From Octopus vulgaris (Eukaryota): a stretch of 64,000 nucleotides of DNA. The notes under the pieces were generated by a model that was given only the letters and a program-made list of their open reading frames with translations, did no database searches and was not told the origin of the DNA. Numbering within the stretch: the stretch's first letter is position 1; each line of letters starts with the position of its first letter. The stretch spans positions 34,410,001 to 34,474,000 of the forward strand of contig OX597819.1 in assembly GCA_951406725.2 (NCBI GenBank), given 5' to 3'. This document shows, piece after piece, positions 1 through 60,779 of the stretch. The position numbers were made by a program, and so were the translations under genes.

Positions 1-690
1 AGGCAATATACTTCTTTCTCAGTCCTTGAACCCCAACTCAAACAAAGCTCACAGAAAGCTGAAAAGGAAAGTGCAGACTGCTCTAAGGAAAATTAAACAG
101 GATGGTGGACTGATAGGGCAAAAGAAGCACAAGAAGCAGCTGATAGAAATGATGCCAAGGGTTTGTACTCTTATGTTAAGAAGGTATATGGCCCAAAATC
201 TTCATTAATAGCCCCAGTGAGAACAGCAAATGGACGTTTGCTTCTGACTGACACCACTTCTATTTATAAATGCTGGGTACAACATTTTTCTGCACTTTTG
301 AATAGACCATCATCTGCAGACATGAGTACAATAGAAAAACTCAAACACCTTTCAGTTATAGGAGAAATGGCATTTGAACCAACTCTAAATTACATTAATT
401 TAGCTGTGAATAAGCTGAATAGCAATAAGTCTCCAGGGTCTGATGGAATCTGTGCAGAAGTTTTGAAATATGGGGATGACAAAATGTTTGAACTCTTAAA
501 TATATTAATTTGTGACTGTTGGAGAATTGAGAAAGTACCTCAAGACTAGATTGATGCCATTTTAGTCTTCTTGTATAAATCAAGGCCAAAGGGTCTGTGT
601 GATACTTTTCATTGGATTTCGCTTGTGTCTGTCATTGGAAGGGTACTTGCCTGCATTTTATTTGGATGTTTAAATACCTTCATAGTTCCA
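1..690 (+). mobile_element. Degraded RTE-clade LINE ORF2 fragment (region preceding and entering the RT domain)
   Basis: ORFs 163-549 and 571-~690 translate to KKVYGP..WVQHFSALLNRPS..KSPGSDGICAEVLKYG..CWRIEKVPQD*..ISLVSVIGRVLACIL. These are typical non-LTR RT N-terminal motifs, broken by stops and frameshifts. Confidence 0.85.
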
Positions 691-35671: not shown

Positions 35672-37003
35672 CTAGTCTTGCCAGGTCTTCTCACGCACAG
35701 CATACTTCCATAGGTCTCGGTCTCTAGTCATTTCCATGGTGAGACCTAACGTTCGAAGGTCGTGCTTCACCACCTCGTCCCAGGTTTTCCTGGGTCTACC
35801 TCTTCCACGGGTTCCCTCAACTGCTAGTGATTGGCATTTTCTCACACACCTATTTTCATCCATTCTCGCCACATGACCATACCAGCGCAATCGTCTCTCT
35901 TGCACGCAACAACTGATGCTTCTTATGTACAACATTTCTCTTAGAGAACTAACACTCTGTCGAGTAAGTACACTGACATTACACATCCATCGGAGCATAC
36001 TGGCTTCATTCCTCATGAGCTTACGCATGTCCTCAGCAGTCACGGCCCATGTTTCACTGCCATGTAGCATGGCAGTTCGAACACATGCATCATACAGTCT
36101 GCCCTTTACTCTGAGCGAGAGGCCTTTAGTCACCAGCAGAGGTAAGAGCTCCCTAAACTTTGCCCAGGCTATTCTTATTCTAGCAGTTACACTCTCAGCG
36201 CACCCACCCCCACTACTGACTTGGTCACCTAGATAACGGAAGCTATCAACTACTTCTAATTTTTCCCCCTGGAAAGTGACGGAAGTTGTTTTCTGCAGAT
36301 TTTCGGAGGTCAATGCTCCCGAGCATCTGCCACATATAAAAACTATCTTCCCAGTTAGCCTACCTTTGACATTGCTGCACCTCTTATGTGTCCATAGCTT
36401 ACACTGGGTACATCTTATAGAGTTTCTACCTACACCTTTTCTACAGATCGAGCAGGGCCATCTTCCTGAGGACATTTGTGGATTGCCTACCTTTCTACTT
36501 ATTAGTACTTTGGTTTTAGCTAGGTTGACTCTAAGGCCCCTCGATTCTAAACCCTCCTTCCACACCTGGAACTTCTCCTCCAGTTCTGATAGTGACTCAG
36601 CAATTAGAGCGAGGTCGTCAGCATAGAGGAGCTCCCAGGGGCAACCTGTCTTGAATTCCTCTGTTATTGCCTGGAGGACTATGATAAATAGGAGGGGGCT
36701 GAGTACTGAACCCTGGTGGACCCCAACCTCTACTTTGAATTCTTCTGTGTACATGTTGCCAACCCTAACCTTGCTTACGGCATCTCTGTACATGGCTTGC
36801 ACAGCCCTCACCAGCCATTCATCTATCCCTAGTTTCCTCATTGACCACCAGATGAGGGATCGGGGGACCCTATCAAAGGCTTTCTCCATGTCAACGAAAG
36901 CCAGGTACAGGGGCTTATCTTTGGCTAGGTATTTCTCCTGCAGCTGCCTTACCAGGAATATAGCATCAGTGGTGCTTTTCCCTGGCACAAACCCAAACTG
37001 CAT
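35672..37003 (-). CDS. RTE reverse transcriptase, C-terminal 443 aa (5'-truncated), with an internal PHD-type finger
   Basis: [51 protein letters not shown] and GRGRPRKTW. Confidence 0.9.
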
Positions 37004-37017
37004 CTCATCTAAACTAA

Positions 37018-37154
<137 letters not shown>

Positions 37155-37189
37155 TCTTGAAATACTAAAGAGTAAATTTATTCAATAAG

Positions 37190-39473: not shown

Positions 39474-41312
39474 AGAAATACCTAGCCAAAGATAAACCTC
39501 TGTACCTGGCTTTTGTTGAGATGGAGAAAGTCTTTGACAGGGTCCCCCGATCCCTTATCTGGTGGTCAATGAGGAAACTAGGGATAGATGAATGGTTAGT
39601 GAGAGCTGTGTGAGCCATGTATAGGGATACTGTTAGTAAGGTGAGTGTTGGCAATGAGTGAAGAATTACGGGTAGAGGTAGGGGTCCACCAAGGTTCAGT
39701 TCTCAACCCCCTCCTATTTATCATAGTTCTCCAGGCAATAACAGAGGAATTCAAGACTGGATGCCCCTGGGAGCTCCTCTATGCTGATGACCTTACTCTA
39801 ATTGCTGAGTCACTATCAGAACTGGAGGAGAAGTTTCAGGTGTGGAAGCAAGGATTAGAATCGAAGGGCCTTAGAGTCAACCTAGCTAAAACAAAAGTCC
39901 TAATAAGTAGGAAGGTTGACAAACCACAAACGCCTTCAGGTAGATGGCCCTGCTCGATCTGTAGAAAAGGCGTAGGTAGAAACTCTGTAAGATGTACCCA
40001 GTGTAAGCTATGGACACATAAGAGGTGCAGCAATGTCAAAGGAAGGCTAACTAGGAAGATAGTTTTTGTATGTGGCAGATGCTCAGGAGCAATAGACACT
40101 GAAAATCTGCAGAGAGCAACTTCCAGCACTTTCCAGGGAGAAAAACTAGAAGTAGTTGATAGCTTCCGTTACTTAGGTGACCAAGTCAGTAGTGGGGGCA
40201 GGTGTGTTAAAAATGTAACTGCTAGAGTAAGAATAGCCTGGGCAAAGTTCAGAGAGCTCTTACCTCTGCTGGTGACAAAAGGCCTCTGGCTCAGAGTAAA
40301 AGGCAGACTGTATGACGCATGTGTACGACCAGCCATGCTACATGGCAGTGAAACATGGGCTGTGACTGCTGAGGACATGCGTAAGCTCACAAGGAATGAA
40401 GCCAGTATGCTCCAATGGATATGTAATGTACATACTCGACAGAGTGTAAGTACCTTGAGAGAAAAGTTAGACCTAAGAAGCATCAGTTGTGGTGTGCCAG
40501 AGAGACGATTGCGCTGGTATGGTCATGTGGCGAGAATGGATGACGATAGGTGTGTGAAAAAGTGCCACTCCCTAGCGGTTGAGGGAACCTGTCGAAGAGG
40601 TAGACCCAGGAAAACCTGGGACAAGGTGGTGAAGCACGACCTTCGAACATTAGGCCTCACCAAGGCAATGACTGGTGACCAAGACCTTTGGAAATATGCT
40701 GTGTGTGAGAAGACCTGGCAGGACAAGTGAGTCCATAACCCATGGCCTTTGTCAGGGATGTAGCCAGCCCACTTATGCATACCTTTCCTTCTTTGGACAC
40801 AAAACTCTGCTTGTGAAGACCTGTTGAAGCAAGTGAAATCGAAATTGAATTCAAAATCGAACCACATCTGACGACTGGCACCCATGCCAACCTCCCTTCA
40901 TTGGACACTAAACTCTGCTTGCGAAGACTTGTTGGGGCAAGTGAAATCGAAATTGAACCAAATCCTATGACTGGCACCTGGCCGTTGCCAGTGCTGCTGG
41001 ACTGACTCCTGTGCAGGTGGCAAGTAAAGAAACACCGTTTTGACCCTGTGCTTGAGGAGACCTATTGAGTCAAGTACATCAACATCAAAAATCAATGGAA
41101 ATTATAGTTGTGATCCCTGTGCCAGTAAAAAACACCCACTACACTCACGGAGTGGTTGGCATTAGGAAGGGCATCCAGCTGTAGAAACACTGCCAGATCA
41201 GACTGGAGCCTAGTGCAGCCTTCCGGCTTCCCAGACCCCGGTCGAACCGTCCAACCCATGCTAGCATGGAAAACGGACATTAAGCGATGATGATGATGTT
41301 GATGATGATGAT
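39474..41312 (+). mobile_element. 5'-truncated RTE-clade LINE, same family as 34860-37020, with (GAT)n tail
   Basis: Starts after (TA)n at [14 protein letters not shown]. Stop and frameshift near 39610-39660. UTR has an internal duplication (~40790-40980). Tail at 41285-41312. Confidence 0.95.
39645..40730 (+). pseudogene. RTE reverse transcriptase fragment (361-aa open frame) with PHD-type finger
   Basis: [40 protein letters not shown] and RGRPRKTW. The upstream part is disrupted. Confidence 0.88.
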
Positions 41313-58134: not shown

Positions 58135-58719
58135 TATATCATCATCATCATTTAATATCCATTGTCCACGCTGATATGGGCTGGACATTGATTATATGAT
58201 TGTATGATTGGTTGTGTGGTTAAGAATAATTGCTTTGCAACTATCTAACTAGTATGTATGGCACCTTGGACTGACCAATGCCTTGTGAGTGAGTTTGGAA
58301 GTGAATTCAGTAGTGTGTTCAATTCCAGGACAGGGCTGTATTGTGTTCTTGAGCAAGACACTTTATTTCATGTTGCTCCAGTTCACTCAGCTGTAGAAAT
58401 GCATTGCAGTATCACTGGTGCCAAGCTGCATTGGCCTTTACCTTTCTCTTGGACAACATTGGTGACATGGGCAGGGAAAACTAGTACACATGGGTGTCTC
58501 TGGTCTTCCATAAACAACCTTGCCCAGACTTGTGCCTCAGAAGTTAACTTTCTAGGTCATTCATAACCAAATGGGGTTTTTACCCTTTACCCTTTTATAT
58601 ATATGTACAGAGAGAGAGAGAGTTTGACTAATATCACATTTGATAATGTAAAGTAACAGGTATCAGGTTATCCCATAAGTTCTGTCCGAATTTTGAATAA
58701 AGAAAACAAGTGATCAAAT

Positions 58720-59193
58720 AGCTTTAGTCTTATATTTATAGACTGCCATATTAGTATGGCGATAACTATTAATATCCAGTAACACTGCCGTAATCTCCTT
58801 TAGAGAGACTTAGTAATTTTAATATTTCTATTATTGAAAACAAGTGGATGTATTCCACTGTAACTAGGTAAATAAAATCTCTGAACAGACGGTCAGTAGC
58901 GACACCTGCTGGTTCTGACTACGCTGCATTGATAAAGGGCAACAACCCTGAAACATGTCTGCAGATGTCTGACTAGCAATGTGAAGCGGCTGACCTCCCC
59001 TGTTCGAAGGTTGTAATGGATGCAGGTTCATGTGTCATATAGCTAGCTAGAGGCAATGGCCTCTTGGAGCTAATCAGCGATACCTTTAGTCTTATATTTA
59101 TAGACTGCCATATTAGTATGGCGATAACTATTAATATCCAGTAACACTGCCATGATCTCCTTTAGAGAGACTTAGTAATTTTAATATTTCTAT
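58720..59193 (+). mobile_element. Retrozyme-like insertion: 1.3 copies of a 362-nt monomer, 12-bp TSD
   Basis: TSD AAGTGATCAAAT at 58708-58719 and 59194-59205. 110-bp direct repeats at 58722-58831 and 59084-59193 (2 differences seen). Central hammerhead. No ORF. Confidence 0.9.
58924..58964 (+). ncRNA. Minimal type I hammerhead ribozyme with U3:A8 core variant
   Basis: CTGCA-TTGATAA-AGGG-CAACAA-CCCT-GAAA-CAT-GTC-TGCAG. Perfect stem I and stem II, palindromic stem III ACATGT, GUC site with cleavage after 58959. Confidence 0.85.
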
Positions 59194-60509
59194 AAGTGAT
59201 CAAATGTTATATTTAATTGAAATTTAATCATCAATGTACTTTCCCTGATTATCTATGACTTCCTTCCATCTATTTACAAGCTTTTTAATTCCATCAATGT
59301 AAAACTTTTGGTTTCAAGGCGAAGGACTCTGAAATGTCAGTTTCAACCTCCTCCTGGCTTGCAAAAGTTATGCCCCTCAAATCATTTCTGTAAACTATGA
59401 AACAAATAGTAGTCTGAAGGAGCAAGGTTGAGAGAATAAGGTGGAAGAGGAATTTTTTCCCAACCAAGCTCTTCGATTTTCTGTGACATGATCTTTGAAG
59501 TGTGGGGTCATGCATTGTCCTGATGAAACATCACTCCTTTTCGATGTATTAAAGTGGGCTTTTTTCTTCAAAACTTGGTTCAAATGCTCTAATTGCTGAC
59601 AGTAGACTTGAGCATTGATTGTTGCATTAGGTGGTAATAATTCAAAGTGAATTACTCCTTTACAATCCCACCAGATAGAGAGAAGACCCTTTTTCCCATG
59701 AAGTTCCCTTCTTGGTTGTGGTTGAGTTTTATCCCTTTTACCAAGCCACTGTTTACGATGTTTAACACTTTGATAGAAGATCCATTTTTCGTCACCAGTC
59801 ACAAGTCTATCCAAAAAGGGTGAAATGAGTTTGTGAGACTGGAGAGAAGAGCAGATGTCAACTCAGGATTTGCGGTTGCATTTGGACAATTCATGAGGTA
59901 CCTATTTTCCAAGTTTAGGAACCTTTCCAAGTTGTTGAAGATGACAATGAACAGTTGCATGGTTTGAACTAAGCTTTATTGCCAATTCTTCAACTGATAA
60001 TGCAGGATTTCTTTCAAATAGTGCCTCAAGGAGCTTATCATCAAACTCAACTGGACGTTCTGTTCAATCTTCATCTTCAAGTTGAAATCTCCACTTCTGA
60101 ATTTTGGAAACCATCTTCAGCAAGTTCTATCATTCAAGCATTCTTTCCCATAAACTAAGTGTATGTTTCGAGTCACTTTGGCTGCAGAGTCGATGCCACA
60201 CGCACACAGTTTCTGTCTACCAAATCCACCTACAAGGCTTTGGTTGGCCCGAGACTCTAGTAGAAGACACTTACCCAAGGTGCCATGCAGTGGGACTGAA
60301 CCTGGAACCATGTGGTTGGGAAGCAAGCGTCTTACCACACAGTCATGCCTGAACCTATATAATTACATATATATAATATATATGCATATGTATGTTGCTT
60401 AATGTCAAATTACAGTGAAAGGAGTGCTCAATACATTTTGTAGAGGATATGATTGTGTTAATTAAAACTGAAATTTGAGTCACAAAACCAACTCACCACT
60501 TCAGTTTTG

Positions 60510-60579
<70 letters not shown>

Positions 60580-60678
60580 TAATAATAATAATAATAATAA
60601 TATTAACAACAACAATAACAATAATAATAATCCATTATTTACATTTGACAGATATTTGTCCTCATCTTGTTTGATGTT

Positions 60679-60724
60679 AACACAATGTTTCAGCTGATAT
60701 ACTTTCCAGCCTTCATCAGGTGTC
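60679..60724 (-). ncRNA. Minimal type I hammerhead ribozyme, probably mutated in stem III
   Basis: Minus strand reads GACAC-CTGATGA-A-GGCTGG-AAAGTATA-TCAGCT-GAAA-CATT-GTGTT. Stem I GACAC/GTGTT, 6-bp stem II. It lies between (AAT)n and (ATT)n tracts. Confidence 0.7.
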
Positions 60725-60779
60725 TTGGGGAAATTTCGAAACTAGGTTCTCATTCCTAAGGTATTTTTCGATATTATTA

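Follow-up and report, generated by a model that had tools for sequence, protein, structure and literature searches.

A 362-nt hammerhead retrozyme family in octopus that carries the insertion footprint of Penelope-like elements

Metazoan non-LTR retrozymes were described in 2020 from coral, the mussel Mytilus galloprovincialis, and axolotl (PMC7229834; this and the other papers are cited here for the accessible portions of their text). These are AT-rich elements without LTRs, built of noncoding units of 150 to 450 bp (350 to 390 bp in the mussel) with one type I hammerhead per unit, which occur as monomers to multimers in thousands of copies, have target-site duplications (TSDs) longer than 4 bp when these are visible, and share their genomes with Penelope-like elements. 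The octopus family analyzed here resembles them in each feature that can be tested and so belongs to this known class; it differs in having a U3-A8 hammerhead core, and its circles are predicted only. Retrozymes have been tied to Penelope-like elements through shared hammerheads, tandem arrangement, co-occurrence, and pLTR homology (PMC7229834; bioRxiv 10.64898/2026.07.22.740005), and the second of these sources, a survey of vertebrate retrozymes, argues for a Penelope origin. Copying of circles for more than one unit has already been proposed (PMC7229834; PMC4209133). The entry of retrozymes into DNA, with Penelope copying of circles, stands as a hypothesis in these three sources, and one in vitro study found the hammerhead to be dispensable (PMC11167929). 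Two fixed start sites, inverted arm pairs, (TA)n targeting, and read-through statistics are not described in the accessible text of PMC7229834 or bioRxiv 10.64898/2026.07.22.740005. Plant LTR retrozymes are likewise nonautonomous, carry a hammerhead, and have a predicted circular RNA intermediate, but theirs are type III hammerheads located in LTRs, accompanied by PBS/PPT and 4-bp TSDs (PMC7229834; bioRxiv 10.64898/2026.07.22.740005), whereas the octopus element has a type I hammerhead, varying 5' ends, and a 12-bp TSD.

Penelope-like elements are marked by partial tandems, an inverted 5'-truncated arm, an optional tail at one end, and a bias toward (TA)n (PMC8557442), with TSDs of 8 to 10 bp when discernible (PMC3846280). 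In vitro, an anole Penelope-like element starts reverse transcription at two internal sites and both DNA strands are extended, which explains the tail; its protein requires RNA downstream of the start sites, mutation of its hammerhead does not impair insertion, and in vitro it acts chiefly on uncut RNA (PMC11167929). The octopus family shares with EN+ Penelope-like elements of the Neptune type 5' truncation, partial tandems, an inverted arm, an optional tail, (TA)n bias, a hammerhead in the repeat and, as in Cercyon, the U3-A8 core, the 8- to 10-bp TSDs being theirs (PMC8557442, PMC3846280, PMC11167929, PMC4209133). It differs from them in having a unit without an ORF, a tail of ~59 nt versus their 30 to 40 nt, and a whole repeat of 362 nt.

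The copy that led to this family lies in a 64-kb stretch of Octopus vulgaris DNA, referred to here as the window. Its features are given below in window coordinates; unit positions are counted from 58722, and sites 1 and 2 are the two fixed 3' ends found across the family.

58661..59862, minus strand: host mariner copy, with its end at about 58661 and a transposase remnant at 59395-59862; the element runs on rightward
58702..58712, plus strand: target-site 11-mer GAAAAC^AAGTG, identical to element positions 115-125 (58836-58846), just beyond site 2
58708..58719, plus strand: left TSD copy, 12 bp, AAGTGATCAAAT, single in 19/19 other mariner copies
58720..59193, plus strand: retrozyme insert, 474 bp (362+112), 1.31 units of the 362-nt monomer, subfamily A
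58720..58831, plus strand: overlap copy 1 (112 nt), its left edge being the variable 5' truncation point
58745..58760, plus strand: hairpin GCCATA-TTAG-TATGGC, immediately upstream of site 1
58771..58834, plus strand: "tail" bounded by the fixed 3' ends (site 1, unit positions 50-54; site 2, 110-113), which lie ~59 nt apart
58802..58858, plus strand: most conserved block, unit positions 81-137, straddling site 2
58844..58858, plus strand: hairpin GTGGA-TGTAT-TCCAC, downstream of site 2 and within the conserved block
58924..58964, plus strand: type I hammerhead, with stem I, core UUGAUAA, a 4-bp stem II, GAAA, and a palindromic CAUG stem III
59049..59064, plus strand: hairpin AGAGGC-AATG-GCCTCT
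59082..59193, plus strand: overlap copy 2 (112 nt), which stops at unit position 110, the family's fixed end 2 (110-114)
59194..59205, plus strand: right TSD copy, 12 bp, AAGTGATCAAAT

An earlier reading of this DNA, made from the sequence alone, had described a 474-bp insert that splits a mariner end between exact 12-bp TSDs and carries 110-bp terminal direct repeats with a period of 362. All of this was confirmed. The 12-mer occurs exactly twice in the 64-kb window, starting at 58708 and 59194; the repeats 58722-58831 and 59084-59193 differ by 2 mismatches in 110 nt, or 3 in 112 when the first two bases of the insert are added; and the right flank holds the mariner transposase remnant (PF01359, E 1.8e-25). 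The same reading had asked what other copies of this mariner look like. Among 39 others listed, 19 were fetched, and all 19 carry the site once and without the insert, with the 12-mer exact in 17 and changed at one base in 2, showing that the duplication arose at insertion. No ORF of at least 150 aa lies over the insert, which shares about 96% identity with its closest relatives. The proposed wealth of hairpins is also borne out: the hairpin motifs named there are present, and the circular fold of the monomer reaches -106.9 kcal/mol versus -81.9 +/- 5.0 for 60 shuffles (z -5.1), the minus strand giving z -2.4.

The hammerhead seen in the sequence-only reading stands as a motif with covarying stems, but its core is UUGAUAA rather than CUGAUGA, a rare variant in which U3-A8 replaces C3-G8. 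At the gathering score Rfam returned 0 matches for it, and at E<=10 none of the models returned was a hammerhead; since Rfam is blind to the motif, the assignment rests on the core and on covariation. Across 11 variants, hand-picked among the commonest sequences, pairing holds in 98.8% of cells and both sides have changed in 4 of 15 pairs; the shuffle control is inflated by related sequences. Subfamilies also differ in the palindrome of stem III, which goes from CATG to CGCG. From the motif, cleavage is predicted after 58959 (GUC), at unit position 238/239. Folding gives stem III a probability of 0 in the monomer circle and places a double hammerhead within 0.4 kcal/mol of the cofold optimum, and the hammerhead is predicted to act in this double form. 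The U3-A8 core has been reported in Schistosoma Cercyon elements, which are Penelope-like, and minimal Penelope hammerheads cleave poorly (PMC4209133); among Xenopus retrozyme dimers, 8 of 9 were without cleavage (bioRxiv 10.64898/2026.07.22.740005).

Searching the 2.8-Gb genome with the insert as query gave 2774 candidates, a 30-mer of the insert had 2141 exact matches genome-wide (control 0), and a hammerhead pattern blind to one subfamily had 621. The copy number of the family is well over a thousand, and its subfamilies are ~80% to 97% identical to the window copy. Related sequence is also listed for runs under other organism labels, X13 (B) and X16-X19 (C, D), and the family may predate the split of those organisms. 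Three sets of copies were compared. Set 1 comprised the 30 best matches. Set 2 comprised 67 insertions, obtained from the first 100 listed places of the 30-mer (a tail motif) with overlapping loci merged; of two duplicated regions in it, one was counted once and the other twice. Set 3 comprised 40 loci from the top of the hammerhead list that were not already sampled and were not chosen by their 3' end.

The 3' ends of the arms fall at two places. In set 2, 44/118 arms end at unit positions 43-58 and 56/118 at 108-116; in set 3, 25/61 end at 47-56 and 25/61 at 108-116, so that fixed ends account for 100/118 and 50/61 arms, respectively. A (TA)n tract follows these ends in 91/100 and 42/50 cases. 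The 5' ends, by contrast, can lie anywhere along the unit, and arms vary from 0.1 to 5.5 units in length. Arms also occur as head-to-head inverted pairs, which join site 1 with site 2 in 29/42 pairs of set 2 and 11/19 of set 3; same-site pairs number 1 and 0, and the remainder include a damaged or other end. The sequence-only reading had expected circularly permuted ends and a variable copy number, which is what the 5' ends and the unit number show but not the 3' ends, fixed as they are at two sites. By analogy with the anole element (PMC11167929), we infer that sites 1 and 2 are start sites of reverse transcription. Mild clusters of 5' truncation are seen near unit positions 73-84, 198-209, and 277-290, with 13 ends versus 5.7 expected at 61-80, and are possibly pauses of the reverse transcriptase at hairpins.

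From the window copy, with its 110-bp direct repeats and 12-bp TSD, one could imagine a mini-element of the TRIM/LTR type whose 110-bp repeats are fixed, a SINE mobilized by an RTE or L1 LINE, or tandems made by nested insertion. The window also contains LINE-type reverse-transcriptase fragments, at 35672-37177 (minus strand), 39645-40730 (plus), and 97-549 (plus), which we take to be RTE-like. Such an origin is very improbable, since it is contradicted by the scattered 5' ends and the varying unit number, the ends are not TG..CA, and nested insertion would give units of mixed variants, which are not seen. The two 3' ends, head-to-head arms, and (TA)n targets instead fit Penelope-like elements (PMC8557442; PMC3846280). 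A TRIM or plant LTR retrozyme was likewise rejected, as fixed terminal repeats, TG..CA ends, and a 4- to 5-bp TSD are all missing here; in denying such a nature to the insert the sequence-only reading was correct, the 5' ends being variable.

Unlike a typical member of its family, the window copy lies outside (TA)n, and its TSD is visible for this reason. Apart from it, the 30 best copies yielded as TSDs only (TA)n artefacts or chance matches of 5-8 nt. The target 11-mer that matches the element spans the left edge of the TSD. In a post hoc test, 0/3000 random window sites had an 11-nt match to that part of the element, and the match is 10 nt out of register for simple primer pairing. We take the match to mean that likeness to the element's own sequence may have guided the choice of target.

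The block at unit positions 81-137 is a candidate recognition element for a helper protein. In the first sample it held 1 informative site in 57 nt, partly by ascertainment, as the search motif biases conservation at positions 84-113; we therefore rechecked it in the hammerhead-picked set, where it holds 2 informative sites in 57 nt versus 0.12-0.22 per nt elsewhere. Two autonomous families resident in the genome were considered as sources of the helper. One, which is Neptune-like and adjoins one retrozyme copy (loci L129-L161, e.g., L159, G000:C9:10670500-10680400), has an intact 784-aa RT plus GIY-YIG frame with the Neptune-type cysteine linker, an upstream frame of ~410 aa, and a 4433-bp tandem unit. 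It shows a U3-A8 hammerhead, TA targets, inverted arms, and two ends ~38 nt apart (17, 13, and 3 other). It has 150 scored matches, those listed being 99-100% identical; the family is very young and active. The retrozyme has no significant homology to the 4433-bp unit (best E 0.12). The other is a second young, TA-targeting Penelope-like family (L163-L182, L099:3155-4000) with a minimal hammerhead-like motif of core UUGAAGA ~125 nt before its end, which our strict hammerhead scan overlooked. The retrozyme had no significant match in 20 loci of this family; a 13-nt antisense match between the family and the first hairpin, within TACTAATA-rich sequence, was judged to be chance.

Because neither of the two resident families examined shows significant sequence homology with the retrozyme, the putative helper is deduced from the footprint. 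The microsatellite (TA)n target is common to the retrozyme and both autonomous families. We regard it as very probable that the insert belongs to the animal non-LTR retrozymes and that this class is moved by Penelope-like machinery; by analogy, the retrozyme would correspond in function to a Neptune-type pLTR whose element has lost its ORF. This supports the earlier proposal of a mobile noncoding hammerhead element copied for more than one unit by target-primed reverse transcription. Of the two kinds of machinery that had been suggested, Penelope is the one that the footprint indicates, and nothing in it points to RTE.

On a cleaved linear monomer, copying would end at position 239; arms are seen to run past this point instead. 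The cleavage site is crossed by 57/100 arms; stops within 3, 5, and 8 nt of it number 1, 4, and 7 versus 1.6, 2.6, and 4.0 expected (75 passes); indels at the junction amount to 0-1 per 127-130 rows, without excess; and arm lengths measured from site 2 are consistent with an exponential distribution (n=56, KS p 0.40). Tandems could also form without a covalent circle if the reverse transcriptase copied a cleaved linear monomer and, on reaching its 5' end, jumped to the 3' end of that monomer or of a different one. End-to-end template jumping is known for the R2 enzyme, and jumping would account for the mixed arrays described below and keep a role for the hammerhead. We consider it improbable, since the cleavage junction has neither an excess of stops nor gained or lost bases, and successive units are nearly always of one variant though several variants of similar age exist.

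This likeness of successive units favors a circle. At non-CpG informative sites, neighboring units share the minor variant 711 times and differ 40 times (different loci, 0.17), and in an independent set they share it 57 times and differ 12 times (different loci, 0.15). Units of the 5.5-mer L127 are 0-0.9% apart, but its four complete rounds differ by 2.0-2.8% from every other locus sampled. In L109, the inverted arms differ at 2/256 positions with the nearest other locus at 4.3%, and those of L111 at 0/197 with the nearest other locus at 2.8%. Among older copies, distances within an insertion are not below those to the nearest copy (means 3.0% vs 2.2%), as is expected where later decay dominates. 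The sharing of variants requires each lineage to pass through a bottleneck of one unit, and a circle provides one. Unit identity can also stem from homogenized master arrays or from duplication after insertion. Also weighing against a circle are array L026, whose units are 8.5-9.7% apart, the surplus of stops within 8 nt of the cleavage site, the normal insertion of anole hammerhead mutants (PMC11167929), the Xenopus dimers that failed to cleave (bioRxiv 10.64898/2026.07.22.740005), and the poor cleavage by minimal Penelope hammerheads (PMC4209133).

The same element and a Penelope-like enzyme could also have worked from an uncut linear multimer transcribed from tandem master copies, with the hammerhead slow or conditional and the circle unneeded. 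The anole element uses unprocessed RNA in vitro (PMC11167929), and a linear multimer equally predicts junctions without a scar and copying that does not halt at the cleavage site; the mild clustering of 5' ends described above is also in its favor. So are mixed arrays: in L162 plain units precede a unit carrying cargo (an element described below), and L122 has two different cargo units. A single monomer circle cannot yield these arrays, and multi-unit templates or template switches must therefore occur as well. A lineage that was linear only, however, cannot spread a variant to all of its units, and many variants are shared (711 vs 40). Also speaking against the multimer are the 23 complete units, which show 20 variant patterns (a number inflated by private mutations), recurrent unit-position-specific differences that are mostly CpG decay in both directions, a longest array of 5.5 units among the first 100 listed places, and compensatory changes that preserve the stems. 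We therefore think a linear multimer rather unlikely as the template, and take the monomer circle to be probably the main one, judging from genomic copies. The circular template put forward in the sequence-only reading is accordingly favored by the copy statistics, with the qualification that mixed arrays point to multi-unit templates or switches too. Contigs from four runs guessed to be RNA (X1, X2, X3, X13; 4 of 24 listed, from four studies and two organism labels) cover 28/28 monomer bins and contain head-to-tail joints in 4/4, but tandem DNA gives the same joint and contigs cannot show strand, ends, level, or circularity, so these were not used as evidence.

Our preferred account, held with moderate confidence, is that the insert is a retrozyme copy probably put in place by the reverse transcriptase-endonuclease of a Penelope-like element that targets (TA)n, most likely from a 362-nt RNA circle whose copying went beyond a single round. 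Transcripts would come from copies that exceed one unit, and two hammerheads, paired via the palindromic stem III, would excise a monomer that a host ligase closes into a circle. A Neptune-type protein, presumed from the footprint that the copies display, would bind unit positions 81-137 and nick both strands of AT-rich DNA, and reverse transcription would start inside the RNA at ~54 and ~113, one start per strand. This would result in single arms or in head-to-head inverted pairs, with each site ending one arm. Copying, as seen in the arms, halts at variable points and passes the cleavage junction without pause or scar, leaving 0.1 to 5.5 units of one variant. The window copy would have begun at site 2 and run for 1.31 rounds, having landed off (TA)n at a mariner site that matches the 11 nt beyond site 2, with a 12-bp duplication as the result.

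The family is not a new kind of mobile element, as animal non-LTR retrozymes and a circle-templated model are already in print (PMC7229834; PMC4209133; bioRxiv 10.64898/2026.07.22.740005, in their accessible portions). No prior paper on the octopus family or its insertion footprint was found in the open literature, and the family may already be catalogued in Repbase/Dfam. What the family displays, copy by copy, is the Penelope two-site footprint on a 362-nt noncoding unit, together with read-through of the cleavage site and homogeneity of units. With predicted start sites, a short conserved block, and young intact ORFs of a candidate helper, the question becomes testable in vitro.

The window copy is otherwise an ordinary member of its family, and the least expected part of the analysis is a gene-bearing element that targets the units. 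This cargo is a 1.55-kb element with one frame of ~450 aa that contains a CCHC knuckle motif and that we take to be LINE ORF1-like; it has 265 candidates (L122:2828-6918, L162, L183-L212 in G000). The cargo protein itself has no Pfam match and no Atlas match, and PF00098 is found in its homologues. No ORF2 partner was seen in 30 loci, and no description of the element was found in the open literature. A hammerhead motif lies past the cargo 3' end in 20/30 best loci when a looser motif is used (12/30 by the strict scan), 19 of them at +35 to +40, compared with 39/4040 control windows; in most of the best copies, then, 35-40 bp separate the cargo from the hammerhead core downstream of it. Its hosts are the octopus retrozyme family and two distant relatives (alignment scores of 170-192 vs shuffled maxima of 125-131). 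These relatives are hammerhead retrozyme families with similar tails, located downstream of the cargo in L192-L211 and in L200 and L206, and one of them has a CCGAUGA core (U4C).

Duplications of 14-19 nt flank the cargo in 4 loci, and coordinates give overlaps of 11-18 nt in 4 more. Three cargo loci share one junction, and two of these end at site 2 in (TA)n, which indicates that the composite of cargo and retrozyme itself moved. One can tentatively imagine a three-tier system, possible but doubtful at present, in which a Neptune RT rolls 362-nt hammerhead circles into DNA from two fixed sites of one circle, and the cargo, with its zinc-knuckle gene alone, homes to one set place ahead of the hammerhead core in three related circle families and rides on them, giving protein-coding circles of ~1.9 kb. 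If true, a retrozyme would thereby have acquired a gene, and the cargo would be parasitic on a parasite of a retrotransposon.

A second, unrelated hammerhead motif is present in the window at 60640-60765 on the minus strand, with a CUGAUGA core at ~60719 and a long stem II. It lies between (ATA)n/(TTA)n tracts and is probably the 3' end of another Penelope-like family.
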